From an uncultured Gammaproteobacteria bacterium (lineage in GTDB: Bacteria; Patescibacteriota; Microgenomatia; UBA12405; JAHJSD01), in contig CAZDJQ010000002.1 in the NCBI GenBank assembly GCA_964505765.1, positions 1 through 36,619 of the forward strand: a DNA stretch of 36,619 bases. Reading direction: 5' to 3'. Positions 9,510 through 24,126 of this stretch are shown here, piece after piece (positions within the stretch are counted from its first letter, which is position 1; every line of letters begins with the position of its first letter). Both the position numbers and the translations under genes were made by a program. Below the pieces are notes generated by a model that saw only the letters and a program-made list of their open reading frames with translations, was not told where the DNA came from and did not search any database.

Positions 9510-10289
9510 TTAAGCCCATCGAGTTATTAAAATCAAAGCAACCGAAATTCCGATTCCTACCCAAATAAATTCACGAACTGTCTGCTTGAATAATTTGTCA
9601 TGCGCCTTTGCTTGAGCTAAACCGCCAAAAACATAAAACAAGCTGGCCAGGTATAAAGCAGTTTCGGCCGTATTTGCCGGCCAAAATGAGATTACAAGTC
9701 CAACTTCTGCCAATATAATAGAAAAAACTAGCGTAGATAGCCAGTATCTTTCTTGACCGGACGGAGACAAATTTATAAACCAAAAAAAGTGGAAAATCAG
9801 GGGCAAGCTTGTAATAAGGATAAATAGAGCGTTGAACCACGGCCCCATTCGAAACGAAAAAACCACATCATAGGCTAGAAAAGCAATAACCAGCGTGATT
9901 AAAAATCCAACCGTAACTGCCGCTCGGTAAAGCGGGACTGTTTTGTGGGTGGAAGTAACCAAAAAAACATTTTCCAATAAGAATAAGGAATACAATCCAA
10001 CAATAAACAACACCATTATCCCTATTTGCCAAAAGATATTATGACAAAACAAAAACCTAAAAACGCTGAGAACCGCAAAGAAATAAGCTGGAAAAAAACT
10101 GGCAATCAGCAAATCTTTTACTTGCTTGCTGGTCTGACGCGATATAAAAAAGAAAAAAACCGCCAACAGTAGTGAAAGCACGGCAATACTAAAATATCGC
10201 CAGTCATAAGGAACAAAACCAGCTAAGAAAAACAAAACGCTAAACCCGATGGTCCCGATAACAAACTGCAGTCGTTTATCCATTTTCAA
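9510..10289 (-). CDS. polytopic membrane protein, function unknown
   Basis: 259-aa ORF, highly hydrophobic with about 7-8 predicted TM segments. It lies directly downstream of yebC with a 1-nt gap. Confidence 0.7.
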   Translation of the reverse strand: MKMDKRLQFVIGTIGFSVLFFLAGFVPYDWRYFSIAVLSLLLAVFFFFISRQTSKQVKDLLIASFFPAYFFAVLSVFRFLFCHNIFWQIGIMVLFIVGLYSLFLLENVFLVTSTHKTVPLYRAAVTVGFLITLVIAFLAYDVVFSFRMGPWFNALFILITSLPLIFHFFWFINLSPSGQERYWLSTLVFSIILAEVGLVISFWPANTAETALYLASLFYVFGGLAQAKAHDKLFKQTVREFIWVGIGISVALILITRWA

Positions 10290-10290
10290 A

Positions 10291-11004
10291 CTAATTTTTC
10301 AAATTTGTAAAAACTCCTTTAACATCAATTCTCTCTTCTAATCTAGCTATTAACTTTTCCAAACTGCTTTTCGCCTCACTGCTGTCAACTTTCCGTTTAG
10401 TCTTTGGCTGCCAAAACAAACCGCTCTCTATTATATCCAACCCCTGATCGCTGATCTGTTTAATAATCTCATTCAAACTGTCCGCCAAAACTGTTAATAG
10501 CACCCTGTCTCCTTGTTGTTCAAAATTTAATATACCACTGATATCCAATATAGAAAGAATCTTCTCTTCACCAGGCTTATCAGCCACAATTTTCCCTAAC
10601 TTTTCAAATTGATAGCCAACGGCACCCGGCTCAGCTAATGAACCGTCAAAACGATCAATTAAACTTTTTATTTCTTGAACCGTGCGCTGTCGATTATCAG
10701 TATAAGTGCGAATTAAGATCGCTATTCCTCCCGGGCCATAGGCTTCAAGAAAAATCTCTTCTGCTTTTTCCAAGCTTTTAGAAGCATTTTCTATTGCCCG
10801 TTTAATATTCTCTTTAGGCATATTTTGATCTTTTGCCCGTTCAATTGCCTGGCGAAGCCTGACATTAACCATTGGGTCATCAGAACCGCCCTCTTGGACC
10901 GCGGTGGTGATTAATTTCGATAACTTCCCGAATACCTTGGCTTTCTTACTATCCTCAACCTTCTTTTGGCGTTTTATATTTTCCCATTTTGAGTGTCCAG
11001 ACAT
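10291..11004 (-). CDS. yebC: YebC/PmpR-family transcriptional regulator
   Basis: The 237-aa protein starts MSGHSKWENIKRQK, the canonical YebC N-terminus, and similarity is collinear throughout. Confidence 0.92.
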   Translation of the reverse strand: MSGHSKWENIKRQKKVEDSKKAKVFGKLSKLITTAVQEGGSDDPMVNVRLRQAIERAKDQNMPKENIKRAIENASKSLEKAEEIFLEAYGPGGIAILIRTYTDNRQRTVQEIKSLIDRFDGSLAEPGAVGYQFEKLGKIVADKPGEEKILSILDISGILNFEQQGDRVLLTVLADSLNEIIKQISDQGLDIIESGLFWQPKTKRKVDSSEAKSSLEKLIARLEERIDVKGVFTNLKN

Positions 11005-11006
11005 AA

Positions 11007-11909
11007 CTATATTTTAACACTTCTAATAAAAAATTGGATGTCAGCCAATCCATCCGGTTCTTCAAGTAAAAACTCACAATCAAAAATTTTTCTTAACCGG
11101 TGAACAGTAAAACTTGATTCATTTTCTTCCGCAGTAACAATCAAACAACCTGCTTCCAATTCTCTGTCCCGGTCGCCTATCTCCACTACTCTAATTCCCA
11201 TTTGCTGGATAATATTGGTCGTTTGGCCGGCCAAATCTTGTTTCTTTCCAATATTAAACACACTGACTGACAATTCTTCGCGTCGCACAATAGAATCAGT
11301 AAATGCTCCCCTGATTTCGGCCCAAAACAAATCTTCGTTTAAGTCATAAAAATCGCGGCCATCCGGGAACTTTTTCTTTTCAGACCAATCGGCTATGTTA
11401 TATTCCTGCCAAACTAAATCCCGTTGCTTTAGGAAAAGCCATAACCGCCAGTCCTCTACTCCCCACCAGGGCCGAAAATAGCCGGGAATCAACTGCGACC
11501 ATGTTTTTTCAGTTTTTATTAAATTAGTTCCAATCCTTTCGCTGTCTATCGGAATTCCAAGTGAATAGCTTAAACTCCGCCGAAACACTGCCCGGGATTT
11601 CTCCTGTTCGGATAATAAGGCCAGTTTTTCAGCTAAATACTGGCCGAACCAGGGTGTTTCTATCTGCGTTTCTCCCGGAACTTCAATTACCGTAGCTAAT
11701 TTTTTGGCCGGGATTAAAGAAAGAATTAAAATATCTTTTTCACTAGTTTCCAAAGCCAAACTGTAAGCGGATTTTCCATTCCAAAGCAATTGGGTTTTCG
11801 ACACCCAAAGAAACCATGTTTTTTTTCCTATCCACCCAAAGATAAATAACACCGCCAAAATAAAAACAAATTTTAGGTAATTTAATTTTTTAGTTTTTCT
11901 TTTTCTCAT
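11007..11909 (-). CDS. membrane-anchored hypothetical protein (weak LytR_C-like C-terminus)
   Basis: 300-aa ORF with an N-terminal TM helix. The C-terminal segment VSVFNIGKKQDLAGQ...IRVVEIGD resembles LytR_C. The functional call is weak. Confidence 0.6.
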   Translation of the reverse strand: MRKRKTKKLNYLKFVFILAVLFIFGWIGKKTWFLWVSKTQLLWNGKSAYSLALETSEKDILILSLIPAKKLATVIEVPGETQIETPWFGQYLAEKLALLSEQEKSRAVFRRSLSYSLGIPIDSERIGTNLIKTEKTWSQLIPGYFRPWWGVEDWRLWLFLKQRDLVWQEYNIADWSEKKKFPDGRDFYDLNEDLFWAEIRGAFTDSIVRREELSVSVFNIGKKQDLAGQTTNIIQQMGIRVVEIGDRDRELEAGCLIVTAEENESSFTVHRLRKIFDCEFLLEEPDGLADIQFFIRSVKI

Positions 11910-12615
11910 TTGCCTGATTTAAAATTAGATTAAGCGGATCTGGCAATTCAATCTTAAAATTCATTTTATCAGCTGACACTGGATGCCGAAACCCGATTTC
12001 TTTAGCAACCAAAAACATCACTTCTTCCTTTTTACCATATATCGGGTCGCCAAATACCGGATGACCCAGATATTTAAAATGCACTCGGATTTGATGAGTT
12101 CGGCCGGTTCGTAGTTTTACCCTAACTAAACTATAGATATCACCCTTATAACGATAATGGTCTTTAACTTGAAAAAGAGTATGAGCCGGTCTCCCGCCGG
12201 GAACAACATCAAATTGCGTCCCATCCTTAGCAGAACGACCAATTGGAGCTAGTATTTCTCCTTCCCCTTTTAATTCCCCGCTTATTAATGCCCAATATAT
12301 CTTTCTTACTTTTCTATTTTTAAACTGAGCCTGCAAATTTTTATATGCCGGATTCGTTTTCGCAACCAACAGTAACCCCCAAGTGTCTTTATCCAACCGG
12401 TGGACAATGCCTGAGCGTCGGCGTGCAGCAGTATTTTTTTCTAACTGCCGACTGTCATTCAACCAATTTTGAATTGTCGGTCCAGACCAAGAAGCAACGT
12501 TTAAAGTAACCCATCCTGCCGGCTTATTAATAATTAAAACAGATTTGTCCTGGAAAACAATTCGTGGTTTAAAATAATCTTTATTTATCTTTTTGCTTCT
12601 CGCGGCATTTAACAC
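11890..12615 (-). CDS. RluA-family pseudouridine synthase (no S4 domain)
   Basis: 241 aa with the HRLDKDTWGLLLVAK catalytic Asp motif and a GRTHQIRVH motif. Confidence 0.88.
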   Translation of the reverse strand: MLNAARSKKINKDYFKPRIVFQDKSVLIINKPAGWVTLNVASWSGPTIQNWLNDSRQLEKNTAARRRSGIVHRLDKDTWGLLLVAKTNPAYKNLQAQFKNRKVRKIYWALISGELKGEGEILAPIGRSAKDGTQFDVVPGGRPAHTLFQVKDHYRYKGDIYSLVRVKLRTGRTHQIRVHFKYLGHPVFGDPIYGKKEEVMFLVAKEIGFRHPVSADKMNFKIELPDPLNLILNQANEKKKN

Positions 12616-12976
12616 AGACAGTAGTTTCAGGGTGAACCATCAAGCGTTTAGTATTAATGAAATTATCACAATCTTCGCAAATGCCATATTTACCGATTTT
12701 AATCCGGGTCAATGCTTTTCTGATTTGAATAATTCTTTTAGTCAGCTGATGAGAAACTGCTCTTGCCCGAGCATGACCAAACTGTTCATCGACTTCAATG
12801 TCTAAAGCGGCATTATCATCAACTCGATCCTCATTGGCAAAAGGATCCTCCTCTTCTACAACTTCTTGTCTTTTTTGCAATTTATCCAGTTCTCCGGTTA
12901 AAAAATCCCGAACTGGTTCCAAAACGTCCTGTGGAATCTTAAACCCGGTATTATCTTGCTTGTTACCATTTGTCAT
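12581..12976 (-). CDS. DksA/TraR-family C4 zinc-finger protein
   Basis: 131 aa with a coiled-coil region followed by CEDCDNFI...CVKC. Confidence 0.8.
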   Translation of the reverse strand: MTNGNKQDNTGFKIPQDVLEPVRDFLTGELDKLQKRQEVVEEEDPFANEDRVDDNAALDIEVDEQFGHARARAVSHQLTKRIIQIRKALTRIKIGKYGICEDCDNFINTKRLMVHPETTVCVKCREKQKDK

Positions 12977-13000
12977 TGCTATCCTTTCTAAAAATAAAAA

Positions 13001-13576
13001 TTAAGTTTCAATTTTTTGGCCGGCTCTAAAAATAATCCCGGCAATGCTTAACCAAAAAACTACTACCCAGCTTGCTAATTCTATCAACCGGTTCTGCCAA
13101 AAATCAAGTGCAATCTGAATTATTCCTAACTGAACCAAACAAATCAAAAATAAGAAACCAATTTTCCCGCTAGGATACCAAGAAAATCTTCGATAATTTT
13201 GCCAATAAAAAAGAGATAACAACGTCAATGCAACTGCACCCATTTGATACCAATCCCCAAAAGAAACCATTAACCAGGTAATTAAGCCGGGAACAATCAA
13301 TGCCTCCATCACCGCCCAAAACCGCCAATTGCTGACCTGAAAAAAAAGATAAACTACTAAAATCAAGCTTAGAGTAATTACTAAAAAAGATAATTTAAAA
13401 CTGGTTAGTGAGACTAAATAGTTTAAAAGACCAGATAAAACAAGAAAAAGTAAACTCATTTTAACCACTTCCTGCTCCGGATAATCGGCTTTTAAACGCC
13501 GAAATGCTGCAAACAAAAAGTAAAAAACTGCAATTGGAATTAAAATAGTTTGAATTGTTGGTATGATTTCTGTCAC
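13001..13576 (-). CDS. membrane protein, function unknown
   Basis: 191-aa hydrophobic ORF with about 6 TM segments. Confidence 0.65.
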   Translation of the reverse strand: MTEIIPTIQTILIPIAVFYFLFAAFRRLKADYPEQEVVKMSLLFLVLSGLLNYLVSLTSFKLSFLVITLSLILVVYLFFQVSNWRFWAVMEALIVPGLITWLMVSFGDWYQMGAVALTLLSLFYWQNYRRFSWYPSGKIGFLFLICLVQLGIIQIALDFWQNRLIELASWVVVFWLSIAGIIFRAGQKIET

Positions 13577-13668
13577 AGAATTATCTTACCATAATCTTAA
13601 ATAAACCGCAGATCGTGCCCAGTGGATTGTGGATATTAAAGGGAAAATATTATATACTAATTGTTAAA

Positions 13669-13756
13669 GCCGCGGTGCTGGAATTGGCAGACAGGCTGGT
13701 CTCAAAAACCAGTGGTGTTTTACACCGTGACGGTTCAAATCCGTCCCGCGGCACCA
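13669..13756 (+). tRNA. tRNA-Leu (anticodon CAA), type II with long variable arm, encoded CCA
   Basis: Hand-folded cloverleaf: acceptor GCCGCGG/CCGCGGC, anticodon stem CTGGT/ACCAG with loop CTCAAAA, variable arm GGTGT-TTT-ACACC, T arm GACGG-TTCAAAT-CCGTC, discriminator A and CCA at 13754-13756. Confidence 0.92.
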
Positions 13757-13769
13757 GCAATAATTTTAA

Positions 13770-15092
13770 TTATTCTGAAACGCCAAAAAAGCTAATCTTC
13801 TGCGGATTAAAGTAAAATTCAAAACCACCCACCGGACCATTACGATGCTTGGCAATTTCACAATTAACCAACTCTCTGTTTTCTTCATCTTCCCGAAACA
13901 AAAAAGCAACTACATCGGCATCTTGTTCTATACTGCCGCTTTCTCTTAAGTCTGCTAGTTTCGGCCGAGACCCGCCGCGTTTTTCAACCGCTCGTGACAG
14001 CTGAGATAAAGATAAAACCGGCACTTTCATTTCTCTTGCTAAGTTTTTAAGACCTTGAGAAATATCAGATACCTCTTGCACTCGGCTGTCCCAACGCCGA
14101 GAAGGCCGCATCAACTGCAAATAATCAACAATTACTAATTTTAAATCCTGTTCAATCTGCAGCCGTCTTGCTTTAGTCCTCATCTCCATCATTGACATTG
14201 CCGGAGTATCATCAATAAAAAGTGGGGCTTCTGCTAATTCTCCCATTGCTTCTGACAAGCGTGACAAATCTCCGTCTTCCAAACGGCCAGTTTTCATTTT
14301 CCAGGAATCAATATTCGCCTGTCTAACCAACAACCGGTCGACTAATTCCTCTTTACTCATCTCCAGGGAGAAAAAACAAACCGGCAGATTATCTTCAACC
14401 GCCGCGTTCCGAGCAATATTTAAGGCTAAAGCTGTTTTCCCTACCCCGGGACGGGCAGCTAAAATAATTAAATTACTCGCCTGAAATCCAGCTAAATAAT
14501 CATCCAAATCTTTAAAACCACTGGAAACCCCCCGTAAACCGTCAGATTTTTTTTGTAATTCATCTAAACGATCGAAACTTTCAGCTAATGCTTCCCTTAA
14601 TGAGGTCGGCTTGTTTTGTAAATGCCCCTGGCTTAATTGAAAAACTTTACTTTCAGCAAGGTTCAAAATATCACTGACTTCTTCACCTTCATCAAATGCC
14701 GCTTGACTAATTTGATTTGCCGCCGAAATTAATCGCCTTTTCGTATATAAATCTTTAACTATCTGGGCGTAAGACAAAACATGAGCTGAAGTTGGAACAG
14801 AATTTGCCAACTCTGTTAAATAGGCCCGACCGCCGATTTTCTTCAACGCCTTTTTTTTCTTCAACCGCTCAGCCATGGTTATTAAATCAATCGGAACCCG
14901 CTCCTCAAATAATTCAAGCGCCGCTTCAAAAATCTCAGAATGGCCAGTTTCATAAAAATATTCTGGAAAAATAATATCGGCGATATCAACAATCGCATCT
15001 TTATCAATCAAGACCGCACCAAGCACAGAAACCTCGGCTTCTTTTGAATGGGGCGGGACTTTTAAACGCTGTGCAGAATTTCGCTGAGACAT
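13770..15092 (-). CDS. dnaB: replicative DNA helicase DnaB
   Basis: 440 aa with PPHSKEAEVSVLGAVL at the N-terminus, Walker A GARPGVGKT and collinear RecA-like motifs. Confidence 0.95.
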   Translation of the reverse strand: MSQRNSAQRLKVPPHSKEAEVSVLGAVLIDKDAIVDIADIIFPEYFYETGHSEIFEAALELFEERVPIDLITMAERLKKKKALKKIGGRAYLTELANSVPTSAHVLSYAQIVKDLYTKRRLISAANQISQAAFDEGEEVSDILNLAESKVFQLSQGHLQNKPTSLREALAESFDRLDELQKKSDGLRGVSSGFKDLDDYLAGFQASNLIILAARPGVGKTALALNIARNAAVEDNLPVCFFSLEMSKEELVDRLLVRQANIDSWKMKTGRLEDGDLSRLSEAMGELAEAPLFIDDTPAMSMMEMRTKARRLQIEQDLKLVIVDYLQLMRPSRRWDSRVQEVSDISQGLKNLAREMKVPVLSLSQLSRAVEKRGGSRPKLADLRESGSIEQDADVVAFLFREDEENRELVNCEIAKHRNGPVGGFEFYFNPQKISFFGVSE

Positions 15093-16942: not shown

Positions 16943-18181
16943 ATGACAAAAAAACTAAAACCGATCAAGGGGTTTAGAGATTTTTACCCTGAAGACTGGG
17001 CATTCCAAAACTGGCTAAAAAATACTTGGCTTAGGCTGGGAAAATCTTTTGGCTATCAAGAATACGAAGGCCCCTTATTGGAACCGATTGAACTTTATCT
17101 CTCTAAAACCAGCGAAGAGATTGTTCAAAAACAAACATTTAAGTTTTCAAAAAAGGGGAAAAAATATGTTTTACGGCCGGAATTAACTCCGACTCTCGCC
17201 CGGATGGTAGCGCAAAAACAATTTAAATTGAAGTTGCCGGCAAAATGGCAGTCTTACGGACAATTTTTCCGATATGAACAACCTCAGAAAGGCCGCGGCC
17301 GGTCCTTTTTCCAATGGAATATAGACTTATTAGGCTTAGAAAACAGCGAGGCCGATAGTGAAATCGTCGCTTTAGCCTGCTTATCACTTAAAAACCTGGG
17401 GCTTACGCCTGACGAGGTAGTAATCAAGCTAAATGACCGCCGCGAGTTGCAAAAGCAGAAAATTTCCAAAGATTTATTCCCCTACATTGACAAATTAACT
17501 AAAATGAATTTTAAAAAATGGCAGACCTGGCTGAAAGATGAAGGCGTCTCAACAAAAAAAATAAGGAAAATGGTCGAGTTTTTAAAGTCTGAAAATAATA
17601 ATTATTCCGATTATTTAAATAAAATTATAAAGAGCCTGGAAAAATACGGACTGGCCGATTATGTTAGGGTTGATAAAAGTCTGGTTCGCGGTTTGGATTA
17701 CTACACCGGAATTGTTTTTGAAGCTTGGAGTATAAATTCCTCATTAAACCGGGCTCTTTTTGGCGGCGGCCGATATGACAGCCTAACTCAGCAGGTGGGC
17801 GGGAAAAAACAAATTCCCGGCGTTGGATTTGCTGTCGGCGACCTGCCAATTTATGAACTACTCAAAGAAAAAGACAAACTCCCGGTTTTGGATTCCAACC
17901 CGACCCGGGTTTTAGTCACAGTCTTTTCTCCGGAAACGCAGGCCCAGGCTTTTAAAACTGCTCAGCAGCTGCGGCAAGCAGAAATCAATACGGAATTATA
18001 TCTTAAGCCTAATGACAACTTAGGAGACCAATTAGACTATGCTAATGATAAAAATATTCCCTACTCCATCATCCTCGGCCCGGAAGAAATTGAAAAAAAA
18101 GTCATCACTCTAAAAAACATGGAATCCGGAGAACAAGAAAAACTTTCTTTAAAACAAACAATAAAAAAACTATCTTCATAA
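16943..18181 (+). CDS. hisS: histidyl-tRNA synthetase
   Basis: 412 aa with KGFRDFYPED, LRPELTPTLARMV, GGGRYD and a C-terminal anticodon-binding domain. Confidence 0.93.
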   Translation: MTKKLKPIKGFRDFYPEDWAFQNWLKNTWLRLGKSFGYQEYEGPLLEPIELYLSKTSEEIVQKQTFKFSKKGKKYVLRPELTPTLARMVAQKQFKLKLPAKWQSYGQFFRYEQPQKGRGRSFFQWNIDLLGLENSEADSEIVALACLSLKNLGLTPDEVVIKLNDRRELQKQKISKDLFPYIDKLTKMNFKKWQTWLKDEGVSTKKIRKMVEFLKSENNNYSDYLNKIIKSLEKYGLADYVRVDKSLVRGLDYYTGIVFEAWSINSSLNRALFGGGRYDSLTQQVGGKKQIPGVGFAVGDLPIYELLKEKDKLPVLDSNPTRVLVTVFSPETQAQAFKTAQQLRQAEINTELYLKPNDNLGDQLDYANDKNIPYSIILGPEEIEKKVITLKNMESGEQEKLSLKQTIKKLSS

Positions 18182-18246: not shown

Positions 18247-18924
18247 ATGAAAAAAAGAGAATCAAAACTTTTAAAGACTCTCAGATTAGCTGACGATCTT
18301 ATGTTACTTTTTTATGATTATTTTGATCGAGACATTAGAAAACTACCAGACTTGGAAGATTTTCTTTATGCTGGCGTTGAATCCACCTCCTCTTACTTCA
18401 TTAAAAAGGGTATTCTCAATCCGGATTTAACATTTAGGGAAAGTCCCCAATCTGTTCTAAGGCTAATAAAAAAGCCATGGGATAAAAAATGGCGTTTTGT
18501 CGTTTTTGATATTCCTCAAGAAAATCGGACTATAAGAGATATAATCCGCCGTCGACTAAAAGAGTGGGGTTTTAAATTTTTCCAACGCTCCATTTGGTTT
18601 TCTCCCCTCCCTTTAACTAATAAAGTAAAACAACTAGATAAACATATTGATGACACGGATTATCTAACTATTATTGAAGGAACAATATTCCGTTGTAATC
18701 CGCAAAAACTTGTTGAAGAAAAATGGGAAATTAACAATTGGAAAACTAAAGCTCAAAATTGGTGTTCACAAATAAAAAACAAAAATAAGTTAACTAAAGA
18801 ATCACAAATTAAATTTTGGAATCTAATTGAATCCCATCCAAAAGTTCCTTTAGACCTTCTCCCACCTAATTGGCCACTTAAAAAAACATTTGAATTCTTT
18901 GCTAATAAAAAATTCAAAATTTAA
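18247..18924 (+). CDS. PaaX-like protein (Cas2-fold middle domain plus PaaX_C-like tail), paralog 2
   Basis: 225 aa. WDKKWRFVVFDIPQENRTIRDIIRRRLKEWGFKFFQRSIWFSP and HPKVPLDLLPPNWPLK align with the 6875-7540 protein. The flanking DNA of the two loci is not similar. Confidence 0.7.
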   Translation: MKKRESKLLKTLRLADDLMLLFYDYFDRDIRKLPDLEDFLYAGVESTSSYFIKKGILNPDLTFRESPQSVLRLIKKPWDKKWRFVVFDIPQENRTIRDIIRRRLKEWGFKFFQRSIWFSPLPLTNKVKQLDKHIDDTDYLTIIEGTIFRCNPQKLVEEKWEINNWKTKAQNWCSQIKNKNKLTKESQIKFWNLIESHPKVPLDLLPPNWPLKKTFEFFANKKFKI

Positions 18925-19896: not shown

Positions 19897-19905
19897 ATTA
19901 TAACA
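19897..19905 (-). promoter_or_regulatory. extended -10 element TGTTATAAT upstream of rpmE
   Basis: The reverse complement of 19897-19905 is TGTTATAAT, which lies 8 nt upstream of the rpmE ATG. Confidence 0.45.
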
Positions 19906-19929: not shown

Positions 19930-20445
19930 TCAGAAATCTCTATACCCTAAAGATTCTACAGGCCCCATACTACTCTGATACTTTCCATCATACAAAGTTA
20001 TTTCACCTATTGTCTCCCAAAAACTAACTTGCCCGATTAACATCCCTGGATATATTTTAACAGGCTGTACTGCATGCAACATTAAAGTCCACCTGTTTAT
20101 TGAGCCAATATCAATCAATCCTGCTGTTATATGTATAAAAAGCCCTAGTCTTCCAGTTGAAGATCTCCCCCTGATGATTGGAACATACTTTTTACTACCC
20201 ATAATTTCTTTTGTACAACCCAAATATAATGTATCAGGTTTTAATACAAAGCCTGATTTTGGGATTTTTATACTTTTAGTGGGGTTATGTTTTTTAGCAT
20301 CTAACATTTTATTCTTATAAACTTTAATTTCATTACCAAGTTGAAAATCATAAGAGTTTGTATCTAAGTTAGATTTATCAAAAGGATTAATAACTATATC
20401 CCCTTCACTAACTCTTTTCGCTATTTCGTTTCCTGTTAAAATCAT
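19930..20445 (-). CDS. dCTP deaminase/dUTPase-superfamily protein, paralog B (catalytic Glu position is Met)
   Basis: 171 aa with GRSSTGRLGL, LIDIG and a WTLML segment where Dcd has the (V/T)LE catalytic Glu. The C-terminal YDGKYQ lid motif is present. Confidence 0.8.
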   Translation of the reverse strand: MILTGNEIAKRVSEGDIVINPFDKSNLDTNSYDFQLGNEIKVYKNKMLDAKKHNPTKSIKIPKSGFVLKPDTLYLGCTKEIMGSKKYVPIIRGRSSTGRLGLFIHITAGLIDIGSINRWTLMLHAVQPVKIYPGMLIGQVSFWETIGEITLYDGKYQSSMGPVESLGYRDF

Positions 20446-20976
20446 TTAAGTATTAAACTCCTTATAAAAACTACTTGGATATGGTCGAGAAAATTGCTTA
20501 TAAAAACCATTATACAATTCTTTAGGATCCCCCTTATTTACCCAAAAACTAACTTGCCCAATTTTCATATGGGGATAAATTCTCAGAGGCTGGACTACTT
20601 TTAATTCTAAAGTCCAACAATGTAACGTCCCCACATGTCCTAAATCAGCTGTTATTTGTAAAAACAATCCCAACCTCCCAACCGAAGATCTCCCTAACAA
20701 AATAGTTGTATATTTATTACTACCGATTTGTTCAAAAGTTCTTGCCAAATAAAGATTTCCCGGCATTAATTTATAACCATCTTCGTCATCTATAATTACC
20801 TTCTCAAACTTGGCCCTTTTAGCAGAATCTAAAGACTGACCTTTCTTTAACTTTAATATTTCTGGAGCCAAACGATAGTTATAACTATTTGGATTAACTA
20901 ATTTTTTATTAAAAGGCTCTATTGTAATATTTCCCTTTTTGTTTTCCTGTTTTATTTGATTACCTGTTAAAATCAT
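20446..20976 (-). CDS. dCTP deaminase/dUTPase-superfamily protein, paralog A (Glu retained)
   Basis: 176 aa with GRSSVGRLGL and WTLEL (Glu present). The IDPG Asp position reads His (ADLGHVG) in my by-eye alignment. Confidence 0.8.
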   Translation of the reverse strand: MILTGNQIKQENKKGNITIEPFNKKLVNPNSYNYRLAPEILKLKKGQSLDSAKRAKFEKVIIDDEDGYKLMPGNLYLARTFEQIGSNKYTTILLGRSSVGRLGLFLQITADLGHVGTLHCWTLELKVVQPLRIYPHMKIGQVSFWVNKGDPKELYNGFYKQFSRPYPSSFYKEFNT

Positions 20977-20978
20977 TT

Positions 20979-21800
20979 TTAAAAAAGCTCTACAAATCTT
21001 TTACCATAAAAATCTTTTCGATAACGGTGAACAAGAACATTATAGTTTTGATAATCCCTTAGAATATTTGACATCTCTTTAATTTCGTATAAACGCTGAT
21101 ACAGAACTTCTCTAATTTCGTTGTCTTTAATTTCCATATTTGAGCAAACTCGATCAATTGTAGAGTTACAATAAAATTTTAATTCATTTTCTGTTTCCTT
21201 AAGTATTTTATTGCGATCCTCATATATCAACTCTAAGTTTGAATAAATTTTCATAACTTCTTTATACCCCTCTTGCGTTATCTCAAAATTAAAGATTTTT
21301 TTCGCCTGATTAATTAAATTATTTGGAATTTTATCAACAATATAAAATTCACAAGAAAGTATATAACCTGGAGATTCTAACCATTTTATACATCGGTCAA
21401 TCATTGCCTGAGGGTTTGAAAAAAAGCGCAAAGCCGCCCCAAATATTATATGTGTAAATTTATTTTTAGGTTCAAAAAGATAACCATCTTGTATTTTGTA
21501 TTCGATATTTAAGTTATTGAAATGCTCGGATTTAATTCTATTAGCTGCCTTTATAGAAGTACTTGAAACATCTATTCCCAATCCCTTACAACTTGTTAAA
21601 AACGCTAATTCTCTCAAACTAAACCCTGTCGTACATCCAACTTCTAGAATAATAGATTTTTTATCTACATTCCCGAACTTTGCCCATTTATTAACAGTAG
21701 AAAAAGCACCAGGAGGAACATTCCATTGATTTATAAAGCCAACAAAATCTGTATATGAAAGGCTTTCAATAAATTCAGGTGTCAAGTCCTTTTTATTCAT
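20979..21800 (-). CDS. class I SAM-dependent methyltransferase
   Basis: 273 aa with motif I ILEVGCTTG and post-I GIDVS, plus a helical C-terminal extension. Confidence 0.8.
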   Translation of the reverse strand: MNKKDLTPEFIESLSYTDFVGFINQWNVPPGAFSTVNKWAKFGNVDKKSIILEVGCTTGFSLRELAFLTSCKGLGIDVSSTSIKAANRIKSEHFNNLNIEYKIQDGYLFEPKNKFTHIIFGAALRFFSNPQAMIDRCIKWLESPGYILSCEFYIVDKIPNNLINQAKKIFNFEITQEGYKEVMKIYSNLELIYEDRNKILKETENELKFYCNSTIDRVCSNMEIKDNEIREVLYQRLYEIKEMSNILRDYQNYNVLVHRYRKDFYGKRFVELF

Positions 21801-23117
21801 TTAATTTTCTTCAAATAAATCTTTTAAGGAATCTTTATCACTGGAACTCAAATTCGGATGACCAAAATTTATAAAAGAGTTAATGACCCCCATGAAAATA
21901 TCAGGGTTACCAAAACCCTTTCTTTTAGCACTCTTTCTAATTATCTTTCTCTTTTTTTCCTCAGAATACACAGGATTCTTTAAAATTTGGGTAAAAGAAA
22001 GCATAAAGCTCTCCATTCTTCTATTTGCACTTTTCCCCTTCCTTTTTAATTTATCAAGACTAGCTTCTCTCTTAGGAGACACTGTTTCTCTTTCTAATTG
22101 ATCAGCTATCAAATCTCCTGTTTCTTCAACCAATCTACGGAGCGTATCTCCATCAACATTTAGTAACGAAGATAAAATAGTAACACCATTAGCATATTTT
22201 TCTAAGGATCTTTCCAAGCTCCTATATCCACAATTAAAATAAACACCTGTTTCTAACATGGCAGAAATAGCATTAATAGCATCAACAAACCTGAGTTGCG
22301 CTGGATTTAAAATATCTGAACTAAATTCTTCCACTTTGGAAACCTTCATATAAGCAGGAGAAACATAAATTGGATGTTCTAATCCCAAGATCCTTGATGT
22401 CAAAGTTTCCAACCCAAATCCCCACTCTACTGCTAATTCTTCATTTCCTTTTAAAATTAAAACCACATTTCCTATCTCTTGGAATCCATCTTCAGTAAGA
22501 ACATCAATCGTTACCCCTTCACCAAAAACATTATCTATGCCATATTCCCAGTTATAATAATCGATTAAGTCATCTGCTCTTCTAACTCCATTGGGAACTT
22601 GAAGTTCTTTTATTCTAGTTCGAAATTCTGAAGAAAAATGAACCTGTAATTCACCTGGTAGTAGCTTCAAGCTATCAGTTAAAAATATACTTGCTTCATC
22701 TAGAACTTCCTGTAATCGGCCCGGAGGAGTTAAAACCCCTCCCATCGTGAAATAACTTCCAAATTTAGGATGCATCAAAGTCTTATAAATATCAGAAGCA
22801 TTGTGAGTTCTCAAACAAGGCTGAACTGTTGCTATTCCTCTCTCTGGCAACTCCTTAGCTTTTAAATATTCCTTCCAGCCATTTATTGTAGCTCCAGTAA
22901 AACACACTGTTTCATCAATTTCCCCAGGAATTAAAGGAATTGAGTCTACAATTTCATATCCATTTAAATCATAGAAATTCGCAAATTTGGACTCCACTAA
23001 ATTTCTAATTTGTAGATCTTCATCTCCCACAATTTCTCTTGACTTGATTTCATCTCTTATATAAGGTAATTCACTTTGAGCTGTTTGTCCCCTGGTTACT
23101 TGTTTTCTTTCTATCAT
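21801..23117 (-). CDS. alanyl-tRNA-synthetase-like class IIc catalytic-core paralog (no editing or C-Ala domains)
   Basis: 438 aa. CFTGATINGWKEYL, QPCLRTHN, FTMGG, EIGNVVLI and WGFGLETL are collinear with the AlaRS motifs LFTNAGMNQFK, QRCVRAGGKHN, FEMLGNFSFG, EIWNIVFMQ and TGMGLERI. The C-terminal tail is basic. Confidence 0.7.
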   Translation of the reverse strand: MIERKQVTRGQTAQSELPYIRDEIKSREIVGDEDLQIRNLVESKFANFYDLNGYEIVDSIPLIPGEIDETVCFTGATINGWKEYLKAKELPERGIATVQPCLRTHNASDIYKTLMHPKFGSYFTMGGVLTPPGRLQEVLDEASIFLTDSLKLLPGELQVHFSSEFRTRIKELQVPNGVRRADDLIDYYNWEYGIDNVFGEGVTIDVLTEDGFQEIGNVVLILKGNEELAVEWGFGLETLTSRILGLEHPIYVSPAYMKVSKVEEFSSDILNPAQLRFVDAINAISAMLETGVYFNCGYRSLERSLEKYANGVTILSSLLNVDGDTLRRLVEETGDLIADQLERETVSPKREASLDKLKRKGKSANRRMESFMLSFTQILKNPVYSEEKKRKIIRKSAKRKGFGNPDIFMGVINSFINFGHPNLSSSDKDSLKDLFEEN

Positions 23118-24106
23118 TTTTCTACAAAGTTTAAACTTATTTCATCTGGCTTTTGAGCCGTTAAAGAACAAAACCCCCCGTTAGGAATAGTAAAAAGAGG
23201 ATCTGTGTGGCCAAAATTCAAATCATAAACAATTGGAATATCAACTGTTCGAGTAATTCTTTCAAGGATATTATCTAAAATCTCATAATTAACATTTGAT
23301 TCACTAGCAAATTTACCAATAAGTAAGGCATTAACTTTATTAAAAACACCCATTTGACCTAACTGTGTTAAAAACCTATCAATCCATTTAAGTTTAAAAT
23401 CTTCAGCTTCCTCAATAAATAAAATCTTATTATCTAATTCTGGGAAAAATTTAGTATTGGCTAAACTTAAAAATGTACAGAGGTTGGAAGCAACTATCCT
23501 CCCTTCTTCTTTCCCTGCATTATATACCCTTGAGCCGCGATTGTGCTGAATAATTCGATGATCGTCATCCTCTCGTAAAAAATATAGATCATCTGCGAAA
23601 ATATCAGAATCTGAAATTTCAATCTCTTTTGAATTATCAATACAAACTTTTTTAAAATATTCCCAAGTATATTTAAAAGGATCAGGTTTTGAAAAACTAA
23701 TCACACTTGGTCCCATATAGGTTACTAAACCAGTTTTATTAGTAATGGACTGCAATAAAGAACATACATCAGAAAAACCAATAAAAATTTTAGGATTGTT
23801 TTTTATCAAATTGTAGTCTAAACAATCGAGAATTTGATTTGTATTTAATCCTCCCCAAAAACTCATAATACAACTAATCTCTTCATCTTCTACAAATTCA
23901 TGTACTGCTTTAACTCTATCCTTAATTGTCCCCGCGGTATAATTATGAGTTTTTCTGCATTGTGGATGTTCTATTACCTCATATCCTTTTCTCTCTAGAT
24001 AACGATAACCTTTTCTTATTTGACTATCTTCCAAAATAGAGATTGGCGTTGACGGTGCAATCACACCTATCTTGTCACCCTTTTTCAATTTAGGAGGATA
24101 AAACAT
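23114..24106 (-). CDS. S66-family peptidase (LD-carboxypeptidase / MccF-like)
   Basis: GDKIGVIAPS, IGFSDV (nucleophile Ser), LFIEEAED and NFGHTDP (His). I moved the start to Met26 of the track ORF (ATG at 24106) because the longer ORF overlaps the htrA 3' end. Confidence 0.82.
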   Translation of the reverse strand: MFYPPKLKKGDKIGVIAPSTPISILEDSQIRKGYRYLERKGYEVIEHPQCRKTHNYTAGTIKDRVKAVHEFVEDEEISCIMSFWGGLNTNQILDCLDYNLIKNNPKIFIGFSDVCSLLQSITNKTGLVTYMGPSVISFSKPDPFKYTWEYFKKVCIDNSKEIEISDSDIFADDLYFLREDDDHRIIQHNRGSRVYNAGKEEGRIVASNLCTFLSLANTKFFPELDNKILFIEEAEDFKLKWIDRFLTQLGQMGVFNKVNALLIGKFASESNVNYEILDNILERITRTVDIPIVYDLNFGHTDPLFTIPNGGFCSLTAQKPDEISLNFVEK

Positions 24107-24115
24107 AGTGGAGCT

Positions 24116-24124
24116 ATTATAACA
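24116..24124 (-). promoter_or_regulatory. extended -10 element TGTTATAAT upstream of the five-gene operon
   Basis: The reverse complement of 24116-24124 is TGTTATAAT. It lies 9 nt upstream of the ATG at 24106 and 2 nt downstream of the htrA stop. Confidence 0.45.
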
Positions 24125-24126
24125 TA

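Follow-up and report, generated by a model that had tools for sequence, protein, structure and literature searches.

A five-gene cassette between htrA and rpmE

The 36.6-kb stretch of DNA analyzed here (36,619 nucleotides of contig CAZDJQ010000002.1 from the Patescibacteria assembly GCA_964505765.1; "the window" denotes this whole stretch) carries a block of five minus-strand genes at positions 24106–19930, which we refer to as the cassette. From the first to the last gene the products are an S66 peptidase of the MccF/AgnC5 type, a truncated protein resembling alanyl-tRNA synthetase (AlaRS), an S-adenosylmethionine (SAM) dependent enzyme of the MccD/AgnB1 type and two proteins of the dCTP deaminase (Dcd) fold, designated DCD-A and DCD-B (Table 1). 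The original prediction, made by reading the DNA without database searches, had described five coupled open reading frames (ORFs) between htrA and rpmE at exactly these coordinates, and its family calls hold with the Pfam and NCBIfam models, which return S66, AlaRS-like, SAM methyltransferase and two DCD assignments. The AlaRS-like gene overlaps the S66 gene by 4 nt, the SAM enzyme gene follows without a gap, DCD-A after 2 nt and DCD-B again without a gap. The htrA stop codon lies 20 nt upstream of the block and the rpmE start 41 nt downstream. The ATG start of the S66 gene is backed by the N-termini of its orthologs; a longer ORF beginning with TTG would overlap htrA.

Table 1. Positions of the cassette genes, the boundary repeats and further features mentioned in the text; L numbers designate loci other than the window.
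Sequence	Feature	Position	Strand	Remarks
Window	S66 peptidase, MccF/AgnC5 type, 330 aa	23114..24106	-	Pfam Peptidase_S66 and S66C
Window	AlaRS-like protein, truncated, 438 aa	21801..23117	-	tRNA-synt_2c at residues 41–127 only, 32 bits
Window	MccD/AgnB1-type SAM enzyme, 273 aa	20979..21800	-	class I SAM methyltransferase
Window	DCD-A, 176 aa	20446..20976	-	Pfam DCD
Window	DCD-B, 171 aa	19930..20445	-	Pfam DCD; above TIGR02274 cut-off
Window	TGTTATAAT, extended -10-like, upstream boundary repeat	24116..24124	-	9 nt upstream of S66 ATG
Window	TGTTATAAT, second copy, downstream boundary repeat	19897..19905	-	8 nt upstream of rpmE ATG
Window	Release factor, 226 aa	18948..19628	-	starts 2 nt after rpmE stop
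Window	PaaX-like gene with Cas2-like middle domain	6875..7540	+	GC 0.306; GC3 0.29
Window	PaaX-like gene with Cas2-like middle domain	18247..18924	+	GC 0.314; GC3 0.23
Window	Tyrosine recombinase (Phage_integrase family)	7576..8544	-	
Window	Region of recombinase gene and ORF-poor stretch	7576..9500		
Window	HisRS	16943..18181		
L005	ThrRS-like gene without N-terminal part	6621..7994		
L015	More distant S66 paralog	3823..4809	-	
L019	Orphan S66 locus, Ca. Dojkabacteria STE_79	6989..8162		
L021	More distant S66 paralog	3338..4324	-	
L032	AspRS	479..1858		
L034	Class I LysRS gene and AlaRS-like family member	479..3015		short contig
L037	GlyRS	11205..12629		
L042	Agrocin 84-like cluster, Xenorhabdus bovienii megaplasmid	5831..14481		
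L043	Element with MccD-like/DCD-A/DCD-B trio	7190..12490		also L044–L047

The block differs from its surroundings in composition. Its GC content is 0.319 compared to 0.393 in the rest of the window, of which it forms the lowest-GC 4.2-kb stretch. GC content at third codon positions (GC3) is 0.20–0.25 in the five genes compared to 0.359±0.043 in the other 35 genes, the five being among the six lowest. These computed values bear out the foreign, low-GC character that had been estimated by hand. The remaining window encodes core machinery, with gyrase, DnaB, DnaX, SSB, several aminoacyl-tRNA synthetase (aaRS) genes, a release factor, L31, HtrA and Ctp.

The window contains just two copies of the 9-mer TGTTATAAT, both on the minus strand and one at each boundary of the cassette. 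The upstream copy is likely the promoter of the cassette, with a leaderless-type start, and the downstream copy is likely the original rpmE promoter element. The copies mark both block boundaries, which would fit an insertion of the cassette into the rpmE promoter region along with a doubling of the -10 element (TGTTATAATA duplication). Low GC and GC3 together with the boundary repeat make horizontal acquisition as a foreign insert the most likely origin of the cassette. The 9-mer, lying 8–9 nt before the ATG codons of both rpmE and the S66 gene, also suggests leaderless-type transcription starts in this organism. A consensus scan for promoters and terminators showed no enrichment. In the window and eight loci an Rfam scan returned one tRNA only and no riboswitch or T-box that could name a ligand, and a tRNA scan found only a tRNA-Leu, 6 kb distant from the cassette.

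The five genes form a conserved unit in Patescibacteria

In a word-indexed database of 5.8 billion clusters the AlaRS-like protein had only five close relatives, and a single-protein scan of genome contigs found none. An exhaustive profile search recovered 178 representatives of its family at E<1e-30 and 1,680 at E<1e-3, and a second search of named proteins added one relative, P0040. The related loci were retrieved with a tighter alignment of the AlaRS-like protein, the 42 diverse family members being too divergent for locus finding.

Every close relative with a long enough contig showed the order S66, AlaRS-like protein, SAM enzyme, DCD, DCD, so that the co-occurrence which the original prediction had proposed to look for is found as a five-gene unit in at least 11 Patescibacteria lineages. 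Across the cassette lineages orthologs share 35–69% identity, and the named genomes all belong to Patescibacteria (Dojkabacteria/WS6, Saccharibacteria and unclassified members). The loci have only the five genes in common: flanks are htrA and rpmE here, secA in L001, a ThrRS-like gene in L005 and restriction-modification and GmrSD genes in L013. Chance falls far short of explaining an arrangement in which every related locus of sufficient length has the same five genes in the same order. When the five proteins are compared over 11 lineages, their matrices of pairwise identity correlate with r = 0.85–0.94, and therefore the genes travel together. The AlaRS-like protein evolves fastest (mean identity 39%) and DCD-B slowest (63%). 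Cassette GC content is 0.30–0.355 in all loci and never above that of the flanks. A phage origin of the cassette was considered and dropped, as no relative was found in viral contigs.

L015 and L021 each carry a second, more distant S66 paralog, encoded on the opposite strand some 3 kb upstream of the cassette. In L034, a context unlike that of the cassette, the gene of a 326-aa AlaRS-like family member directly follows a class I (archaeal-type) LysRS gene.

The S66 peptidase and the SAM enzyme resemble microcin C and agrocin 84 proteins

The S66 protein groups with MccF and not with LdcA, in line with the MccF-like assignment made at the outset. Against solved structures it reached E-values of 1e-58 to 1e-45 for MccF-type proteins (1e-58 for a B. 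anthracis MccF-like protein, 1e-46 for E. coli MccF) compared to 1e-10 to 1e-14 for LdcA enzymes, and it scored 115 bits against the NCBIfam LdcA model, whose cut-off is 378 bits. Identity is 34% to the MccF of a verified mcc operon (E 8e-53) and 31% to AgnC5, the "MccF-like protein" of the agrocin 84 plasmid (E 7e-47). The columns of the Ser/Glu/His triad are invariant in the alignment. In place of the loop with the adenine-stacking Trp of MccF (Trp186) the cassette protein has a conserved ADDLYFLR motif, with Leu at the position of the Trp. The replaced loop would be compatible with a base other than adenine; it proves nothing.

In Ca. Dojkabacteria STE_79 (L019) an intact orphan S66 gene, which shares 88% identity with its L017 counterpart, stands next to an AlaRS-like gene reduced to its first 54 codons, and the remaining three cassette genes are deleted. 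Immunity genes are typically left behind as orphans in this manner. We propose that the S66 protein serves as a self-immunity hydrolase, which would cleave an aminoacyl-N(P) bond.

The SAM enzyme aligns end to end with E. coli MccD (30% identity over 268 aa, E 3e-32), and the N- and C-terminal Y-x-D-F...Q-x-N-x-PPG motifs are common to both. A tblastn search of 72,556 plasmids matched 47 records, at least 36 of them microcin C plasmids or pAgK84. The best matches, about 30 in number (95% query coverage, 30% identity, E 2e-24), are mccD of E. coli, Salmonella and Yersinia mcc operons, with the gene context ThiF(MccB)-MFS(MccC)-methyltransferase(MccD)-GNAT(MccE)-S66(MccF) verified. Six matches are AgnB1 of pAgK84 (E 7e-23), encoded between agnA and the resistant LeuRS gene agnB2. 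Among four more plasmid matches those of Exiguobacterium, Peribacillus and Xenorhabdus lie with aaRS-like genes, in Peribacillus and Xenorhabdus also with S66 genes; the Bacillus pseudomycoides match has neither an S66 nor an aaRS-like gene nearby. Six plasmid contexts were opened, four of which contained an aaRS-like gene, with about 7 of the 47 matches left out.

In the work of Kulikovsky et al. (2014, J Am Chem Soc), MccD is reported to move the 3-amino-3-carboxypropyl group of SAM onto the phosphate of microcin C, and the N-terminal domain of MccE, dependent on pyridoxal phosphate (PLP), reportedly decarboxylates this group to aminopropyl. The 3-aminopropyl decoration of microcin C and the immunity roles of MccE and MccF have been described (PMC7916415). 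We propose that the SAM enzyme of the cassette alkylates a nucleotide phosphate or phosphoramidate, either with methyl or with 3-amino-3-carboxypropyl.

Microcin C and the cassette thus have an MccF-type S66 protein and an MccD-type SAM enzyme in common, to which variants of the cassette add an MccE-like decarboxylase and a GNAT domain. The product class would be shared as well, an N-acyl nucleotide mimicking an aminoacyl-adenylate. Natural cytidine analogues of microcin C exist, and pyrimidine-based inhibitors bind class II aaRS (PMC7916415). Judged by its gene content, however, the cassette is not an mcc operon, since MccA, MccB, MccC and MccE are absent. For MccB, the ThiF-family adenylyl/cytidylyl transferase by which the N-P bond is formed, tblastn against the whole window gave no match at E≤0.01. 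MccC and MccE are absent from the window, and decarboxylase or GNAT counterparts occur in L010, L032 and L038 only. The intergenic gaps of only 20 and 41 nt at the block edges hold no candidate for an MccA-like heptapeptide precursor; three mini-ORFs ending in Asn were considered as MccA and rejected, as they lie inside coding regions and do not exceed chance level. Instead, the cassette has the AlaRS-like protein and the Dcd-fold pair, and no obvious uptake peptide. The hosts of microcin C are Enterobacteria or Bacillus, whereas the cassette is hosted by Patescibacteria.

Agrocin 84, a phosphoramidate nucleotide inhibiting an aaRS (PMC7916415), is made by the agn genes of pAgK84. Shared with the cassette are a class II aaRS-like protein (AgnA), an AgnB1-type SAM enzyme and an MccF-like S66 protein (AgnC5). 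In contrast to the cassette, AgnA is AsnA-like, the plasmid provides a resistant LeuRS copy (AgnB2), an ABC transporter and many tailoring genes, the nucleotide is an adenine nucleotide and Dcd-fold proteins are missing.

The truncated AlaRS-like protein retains part of the AlaRS active site

The AlphaFold2 model of the AlaRS-like protein (predicted local distance difference test score, pLDDT, 79; predicted template modelling score 0.80) consists of an aminoacylation domain, a helical tRNA-recognition-like domain and a basic C-terminal tail; an editing domain and a C-Ala domain are missing. The best Foldseek matches were AlaRS catalytic fragments over the full length (E 1e-13 to 1e-10), followed by GlyRS-alpha. 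The model aligns full length with the 441-aa AlaRS fragments of E. coli and A. aeolicus, which agrees with the truncation noticed in the original prediction. A profile of the family matched residues 6–382 of A. aeolicus AlaRS (1riq) with E 5e-28, and the protein scored only 31 bits against the NCBIfam alaS model, which has a cut-off of 457 bits.

R103, W190 and N217 are retained in the AlaRS-like protein. The position of Asp235 in E. coli AlaRS, the residue binding the alpha-amino group, is Glu in 39 and Gln in three of the 42 family representatives and Asp in none; the corresponding E231 is invariant among cassette orthologs. All 42 representatives have the motif-2 Arg and 36 the pocket Asn, and the pocket Trp is mostly retained. 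The position of the motif-3 Arg, by comparison, is never occupied by Arg, and the GGKHND loop is not conserved. Because editing and C-Ala domains are lacking, the Asp is never present, the motif-3 Arg is lost and every close relative sits in the cassette, the 438-aa protein is not plausible as a housekeeping AlaRS.

A comparable protein is AcmF of the ascamycin pathway in Streptomyces sp. 80H647, a truncated AlaRS-like protein of aminoacylation and tRNA-recognition domains with the changes D232E and N219Q, which moves Ala from Ala-tRNA to the sulfamate NH2 of a nucleoside bound in the adenylate pocket (PMC12945691). In the same pathway a separate hydrolase, AcmE, reverses the acylation, and the spare AlaRS AcmD gives resistance (PMC12945691). 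Going by the published description, AcmF and the AlaRS-like protein share the truncation and the Asp-to-Glu change. They differ in that the acceptor of AcmF is a 5'-O-sulfamoyl purine nucleoside and its Asn is changed to Gln, whereas the cassette protein retains the Asn. AcmE is an alpha/beta-hydrolase and not an S66 protein, and no MccD-like or Dcd-like genes are reported for ascamycin. We propose that the AlaRS-like protein is an AcmF-type transferase of an aminoacyl group onto a nucleotide acceptor. An AcmF-like donor route via aminoacyl-tRNA appears favoured, given that the Asp is changed to Glu and the motif-3 Arg is lost; what had been called a ligase is AlaRS-like indeed, but may be an aminoacyl-tRNA-dependent transferase.

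DCD-A and DCD-B split the catalytic residues of Dcd between them

The AlphaFold2 model of DCD-A (pLDDT 87) superposes on M. tuberculosis Dcd:Dut (2qxx) with a Foldseek template modelling score of 0.87 and a root-mean-square deviation of 2.4 Å. Read from the alignment to this enzyme, DCD-A retains the catalytic Glu (TLEL), whereas its motif-3 Asp has given way to His or Gln (TADLGHVG) and the C-terminal KYQ lid motif is missing. In DCD-B the situation is reversed: the motif-3 Asp (LIDIGS) and the C-terminal GKYQ lid motif are retained, and the Glu is replaced by Met or Gln (TLML). This complementary pattern was found in 13 out of 13 lineages. Both proteins keep the phosphate-binding motif G-R-S-S-x-G-R-L-G and I-G-Q, and fold and phosphate-binding motifs are the same as in Dcd:Dut of M. 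tuberculosis and M. jannaschii (1ogh), which however carry Glu and Asp in one chain. According to PDB titles the same Glu (E138 in E. coli, E145 in M. jannaschii) was the target of mechanistic mutants.

Since catalytic Glu and motif-3 Asp do not occur in one chain, neither protein can, as judged from these residues, be a complete Dcd or Dcd:Dut, and DCD-B cannot be a deaminase. The earlier description as a Dcd-like pair applies to the fold, not to a complete Dcd or Dcd:Dut activity. A DCD-A/DCD-B heteromer with two kinds of pocket would be the natural conclusion from the pattern. DCD-A-type proteins are numerous, with 4,152 clusters (90% identity) at E≤1e-20, and the motif-3 Asp was absent from all 27 homologs sampled (His 24, Gln 2, Asn 1). 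Both DCD proteins match the phage dCTP deaminase family in PHROGs, which was otherwise uninformative.

Variant and related clusters

More distant members of the AlaRS-like family are also found in company: five of the seven sampled sit in a variant of the cassette. The plain five-gene order occurs in L031. L010 reads S66, PLP decarboxylase, SAM enzyme, DCD, DCD, AlaRS-like protein, and L032 reads S66, AlaRS-like protein, decarboxylase, SAM enzyme, DCD, DCD. A DUF1826 gene is inserted in L029 (S66, DUF1826, AlaRS-like protein, SAM enzyme, DCD, DCD). L037 consists of methyltransferase, HAD hydrolase, AlaRS-like protein and S66, and L038 of a GNAT-AlaRS-like fusion together with AsnA-like, S66, ATP-grasp, MccD-like and PLP decarboxylase genes. 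The decarboxylases of L010, L032 and L038 align to the N-terminal domain of MccE (E 3e-7 to 2e-15). With these MccE-like parts, counterparts of MccD, of the N- and C-terminal domains of MccE and of MccF therefore all gather around the AlaRS-like protein. No MccB was called in any related locus examined.

Two plasmids carry larger, uncharacterised clusters. On the Peribacillus psychrosaccharolyticus plasmid NZ_CP068052 genes for a second, full AlaRS, an MFS transporter and an ATP-grasp enzyme come after a distant AlaRS-related gene, and MccD-like, AsnA and S66 genes lie upstream of it. Antibiotic clusters that combine export and enzymatic immunity with a spare target are laid out in this way. 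Its spare AlaRS, comparable to AcmD, is the only clear one that we found. The Exiguobacterium sp. Helios plasmid NZ_CP053558 has AlaRS-related and MccD-like genes together with a sugar nucleotidyltransferase, a CDP-glucose 4,6-dehydratase and a glycosyltransferase. Like the cassette, both clusters place an AlaRS-related protein beside an MccD-like methyltransferase, and the Peribacillus cluster also has the S66 protein. They differ in their larger size and in having AsnA-like and ATP-grasp enzymes instead of the DCD pair, and their AlaRS-related proteins form a distant subfamily, of which the Peribacillus member retains the Asp and the motif-3 Arg. A sister layout, in which AsnA-like enzymes are combined with a spare LeuRS, is seen on pAgK84 and on a Xenorhabdus megaplasmid. 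All in all, a class II aaRS-like protein, an MccD/AgnB1-type enzyme and an MccF-type S66 protein occurred together in six annotated plasmid or metagenome clusters examined.

The cluster on the Xenorhabdus bovienii megaplasmid (L042) appears to be an uncharacterised agrocin 84-like cluster. It comprises AsnA-like, MccD/AgnB1-like, S66, nucleoside phosphorylase, VOC and GloA genes, a spare leuS and an aaRS-related protein. In L043, as in L044–L047, an element flanked by a transposon or recombinase and adjoining a LeuRS-type gene contains MccD-like, DCD-A and DCD-B genes, a KamA-family 2,3-aminomutase, a 138-aa ORF, a 384-aa protein and a second methyltransferase. The 384-aa protein had no match in the PDB and gave only a faint ProRS signal.

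A possible pathway to an aminoacyl-nucleotide antimetabolite

Two hallmark proteins of the cassette recur in both the microcin C and the agrocin 84 systems, and ascamycin shares a third. The original prediction knew of no described system with this gene combination, and our limited literature search likewise found no description of it, so that its novelty is provisional. On this provisional basis the new element is the split Dcd-fold pair together with an AlaRS-like transferase in place of MccA and MccB, in an unusual host, Patescibacteria.

With moderate confidence we lean towards the cassette encoding an MccB-independent pathway to an aminoacyl-pyrimidine-nucleotide antimetabolite with self-immunity by the S66 protein. 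Homologies, conserved residues, linkage and co-divergence are observed, whereas the chemistry, derived from them by analogy, would run as follows. The DCD pair, probably as a heteromer, would bind a nucleotide of the (d)CTP or (d)UTP type and supply or form the pyrimidine scaffold, either 5'-phosphoryl or phosphoramidate; attack on the alpha-phosphate, by which pyrophosphate is set free, is a reaction of the dUTPase fold, and DCD-A could free ammonia by deamination. With this nucleotide in its adenylate pocket the AlaRS-like enzyme would then place an Ala-, Gly- or Ser-like amino acid on the amine (N-acyl bond), taking it from aminoacyl-tRNA as AcmF does or, less likely, from an ATP-activated amino acid. 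The MccD-like enzyme would alkylate the phosphate with methyl or 3-amino-3-carboxypropyl, and in variants with an MccE-like PLP decarboxylase the latter would be converted to aminopropyl. The S66 protein, encoded first in the operon and translationally coupled, would provide immunity by hydrolysing the aminoacyl-N bond. Like microcin C, agrocin 84 or ascamycin, the product would imitate an aminoacyl-adenylate in non-hydrolysable form, and its target would likely be an aaRS, perhaps AlaRS. The methylated aminoacyl-(deoxy)pyrimidine nucleotide with self-immunity that was originally put forward thus gains support from the MccD/AgnB1 homology, the likeness to AcmF and the variant clusters, except that the methyl group may be 3-amino-3-carboxypropyl.

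Several points weigh against this pathway. Exporter, spare aaRS and Trojan-horse moiety for uptake are all missing from the five-gene cassette. The role given to the DCD pair is purely conjectural. Unlike AcmF, which has lost both, the AlaRS-like protein retains the motif-2 Arg and the Asn, so that it may depend on tRNA or on ATP. An MccD-like/DCD-A/DCD-B trio exists without S66 or AlaRS-like genes (L043–L047) and may have a function of its own, and some cassettes adjoin defence genes (L013, L032).

A more specific version of the proposed first step is put forward tentatively, as we rate it as unlikely. Here the dUTPase fold would have given rise, in the DCD pair, to a new kind of enzyme. Starting from a pyrimidine (deoxy)nucleoside triphosphate, it would build the N-P linkage or the acceptor, a nucleoside 5'-phosphoramidate, either by capturing the ammonia of deamination or by an amide nitrogen replacing water at the alpha-phosphate. 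Combined with a tRNA-dependent AlaRS-like transferase it would yield microcin C-type warheads independent of ribosome, MccA and MccB.

Alternative explanations

Four other explanations were weighed against the antimetabolite pathway. That the block consists of housekeeping genes adjacent by chance, namely LdcA, a Dcd/Dut pair, an unrelated methyltransferase and a degenerate alaS, is effectively refuted. It would fit the location between htrA and rpmE and a DCD-B score above the NCBIfam dCTP_deam cut-off, but the order is conserved in at least 11 lineages with unrelated flanks, the genes co-diverge and are foreign in composition, DCD-B is without the catalytic Glu and DCD-A without the motif-3 Asp, and the S66 and AlaRS-like proteins fall far short of the LdcA and alaS cut-offs. 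Resistance or salvage without any synthesis, by which exogenous aminoacyl- or peptidyl-nucleotides would be degraded to amino acid and nucleotide for an auxotroph, we regard as very improbable. Patescibacteria rely on scavenged nucleotides and amino acids, L019 retains the S66 gene alone, and stand-alone MccF-like genes are known to give resistance to non-producers (PMC7916415). However, an aaRS-like transferase and an MccD-type enzyme are biosynthetic in every characterised relative, and degradation leaves the strict linkage and the co-divergence with S66 unexplained.

The missing exporter speaks for two further explanations. One is a non-toxic metabolite, in our view rather unlikely: an aminoacylated or phosphoramidate nucleotide serving as donor for the envelope, comparable to the O-methyl phosphoramidate of capsules, or a modified nucleotide or tRNA, with the S66 protein in processing or recycling. 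The cassette lacks a resistant target as well, the MccD-like/DCD trio occurs without S66, the Exiguobacterium cluster contains sugar nucleotidyltransferase, CDP-glucose 4,6-dehydratase and glycosyltransferase genes, and the AlaRS-like protein has a basic tail and a tRNA-recognition-like domain, all of which speak for this explanation. Yet the cassette encodes no transferase that could pass the product to a polymer, the S66 protein is far closer to MccF than to the cell-wall enzyme LdcA, and the orphan S66, the GNAT fusion and the spare AlaRS with MFS pump are hallmarks of toxin and immunity. The other is an anti-phage or abortive-infection module, quite unlikely to our judgement, that would produce a toxic or pool-depleting nucleotide upon infection, for instance through turnover of dCTP/dUTP or in the form of an aaRS-inhibiting nucleotide, with S66 as antidote in uninfected cells, and for which no export would be needed. 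Some loci point this way, L013 lying beside type I restriction-modification, GmrSD and M78/DUF4411 genes and L032 near an AbiU2-HEPN gene and a resolvase, as do the phage dCTP deaminase matches of both DCD proteins. Most loci, the window included, are nevertheless set among housekeeping genes, and no relative was found in viral contigs. A weak PADLOC match of the SAM enzyme to mad2 concerns the generic methyltransferase domain of that protein, and the other four proteins have none. Neither DCD protein has the complete catalytic set, and the closest characterised homologs of the S66 protein and the SAM enzyme belong to antibiotic pathways. The nucleotide-pool or DNA-modification defence offered as an alternative in the original prediction finds little support.

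Other features of the window and of related loci

Genes for aaRS were found near several cassettes: HisRS in the window, a ThrRS-like gene in L005, AspRS in L032 and GlyRS in L037 (Table 1). As resistant copies of the target these genes were rejected for the Patescibacteria cassettes, their specificities being inconsistent, and their vicinity is probably coincidence in gene-poor genomes.

The release factor encoded behind rpmE matches PCRF only from profile position 101 on; the RF-1 domain behind this match is complete. The protein has both the PAT and the GGQ motif and looks like an RF1 without the N-terminal domain 1. The second of the two PaaX-like genes has a GC3 as low as that of the cassette, but rpmE and the release factor gene, which are of normal composition, lie between. 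The tyrosine recombinase gene is followed by approximately 1 kb of ORF-poor sequence with a GC content of about 0.30, and this region could be another mobile-element scar.

Significance

Aminoacyl-adenylate mimics such as microcin C, agrocin 84, albomycin and ascamycin are rare and valued as antibiotic leads and as tools for aaRS research. If the proposed pathway is true, the cassette would represent a third way to build such mimics, with five small genes, in which an AlaRS paralog and a repurposed dUTPase-fold pair stand in place of MccB. The recurring toolkit of class II aaRS-like protein, MccD and S66 links the logics of microcin C, agrocin 84 and ascamycin and offers a handle for genome mining. 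For Patescibacteria, which are ultra-small, largely uncultured and host-dependent and have few known biosynthetic clusters, the cassette is a candidate chemical weapon. The DCD-A family is large, with more than 4,000 clusters at 90% identity, and should formation of an N-P linkage by the DCD pair hold true, the cassette would be a widespread minimal pathway to aaRS inhibitors in Patescibacteria and other bacteria.

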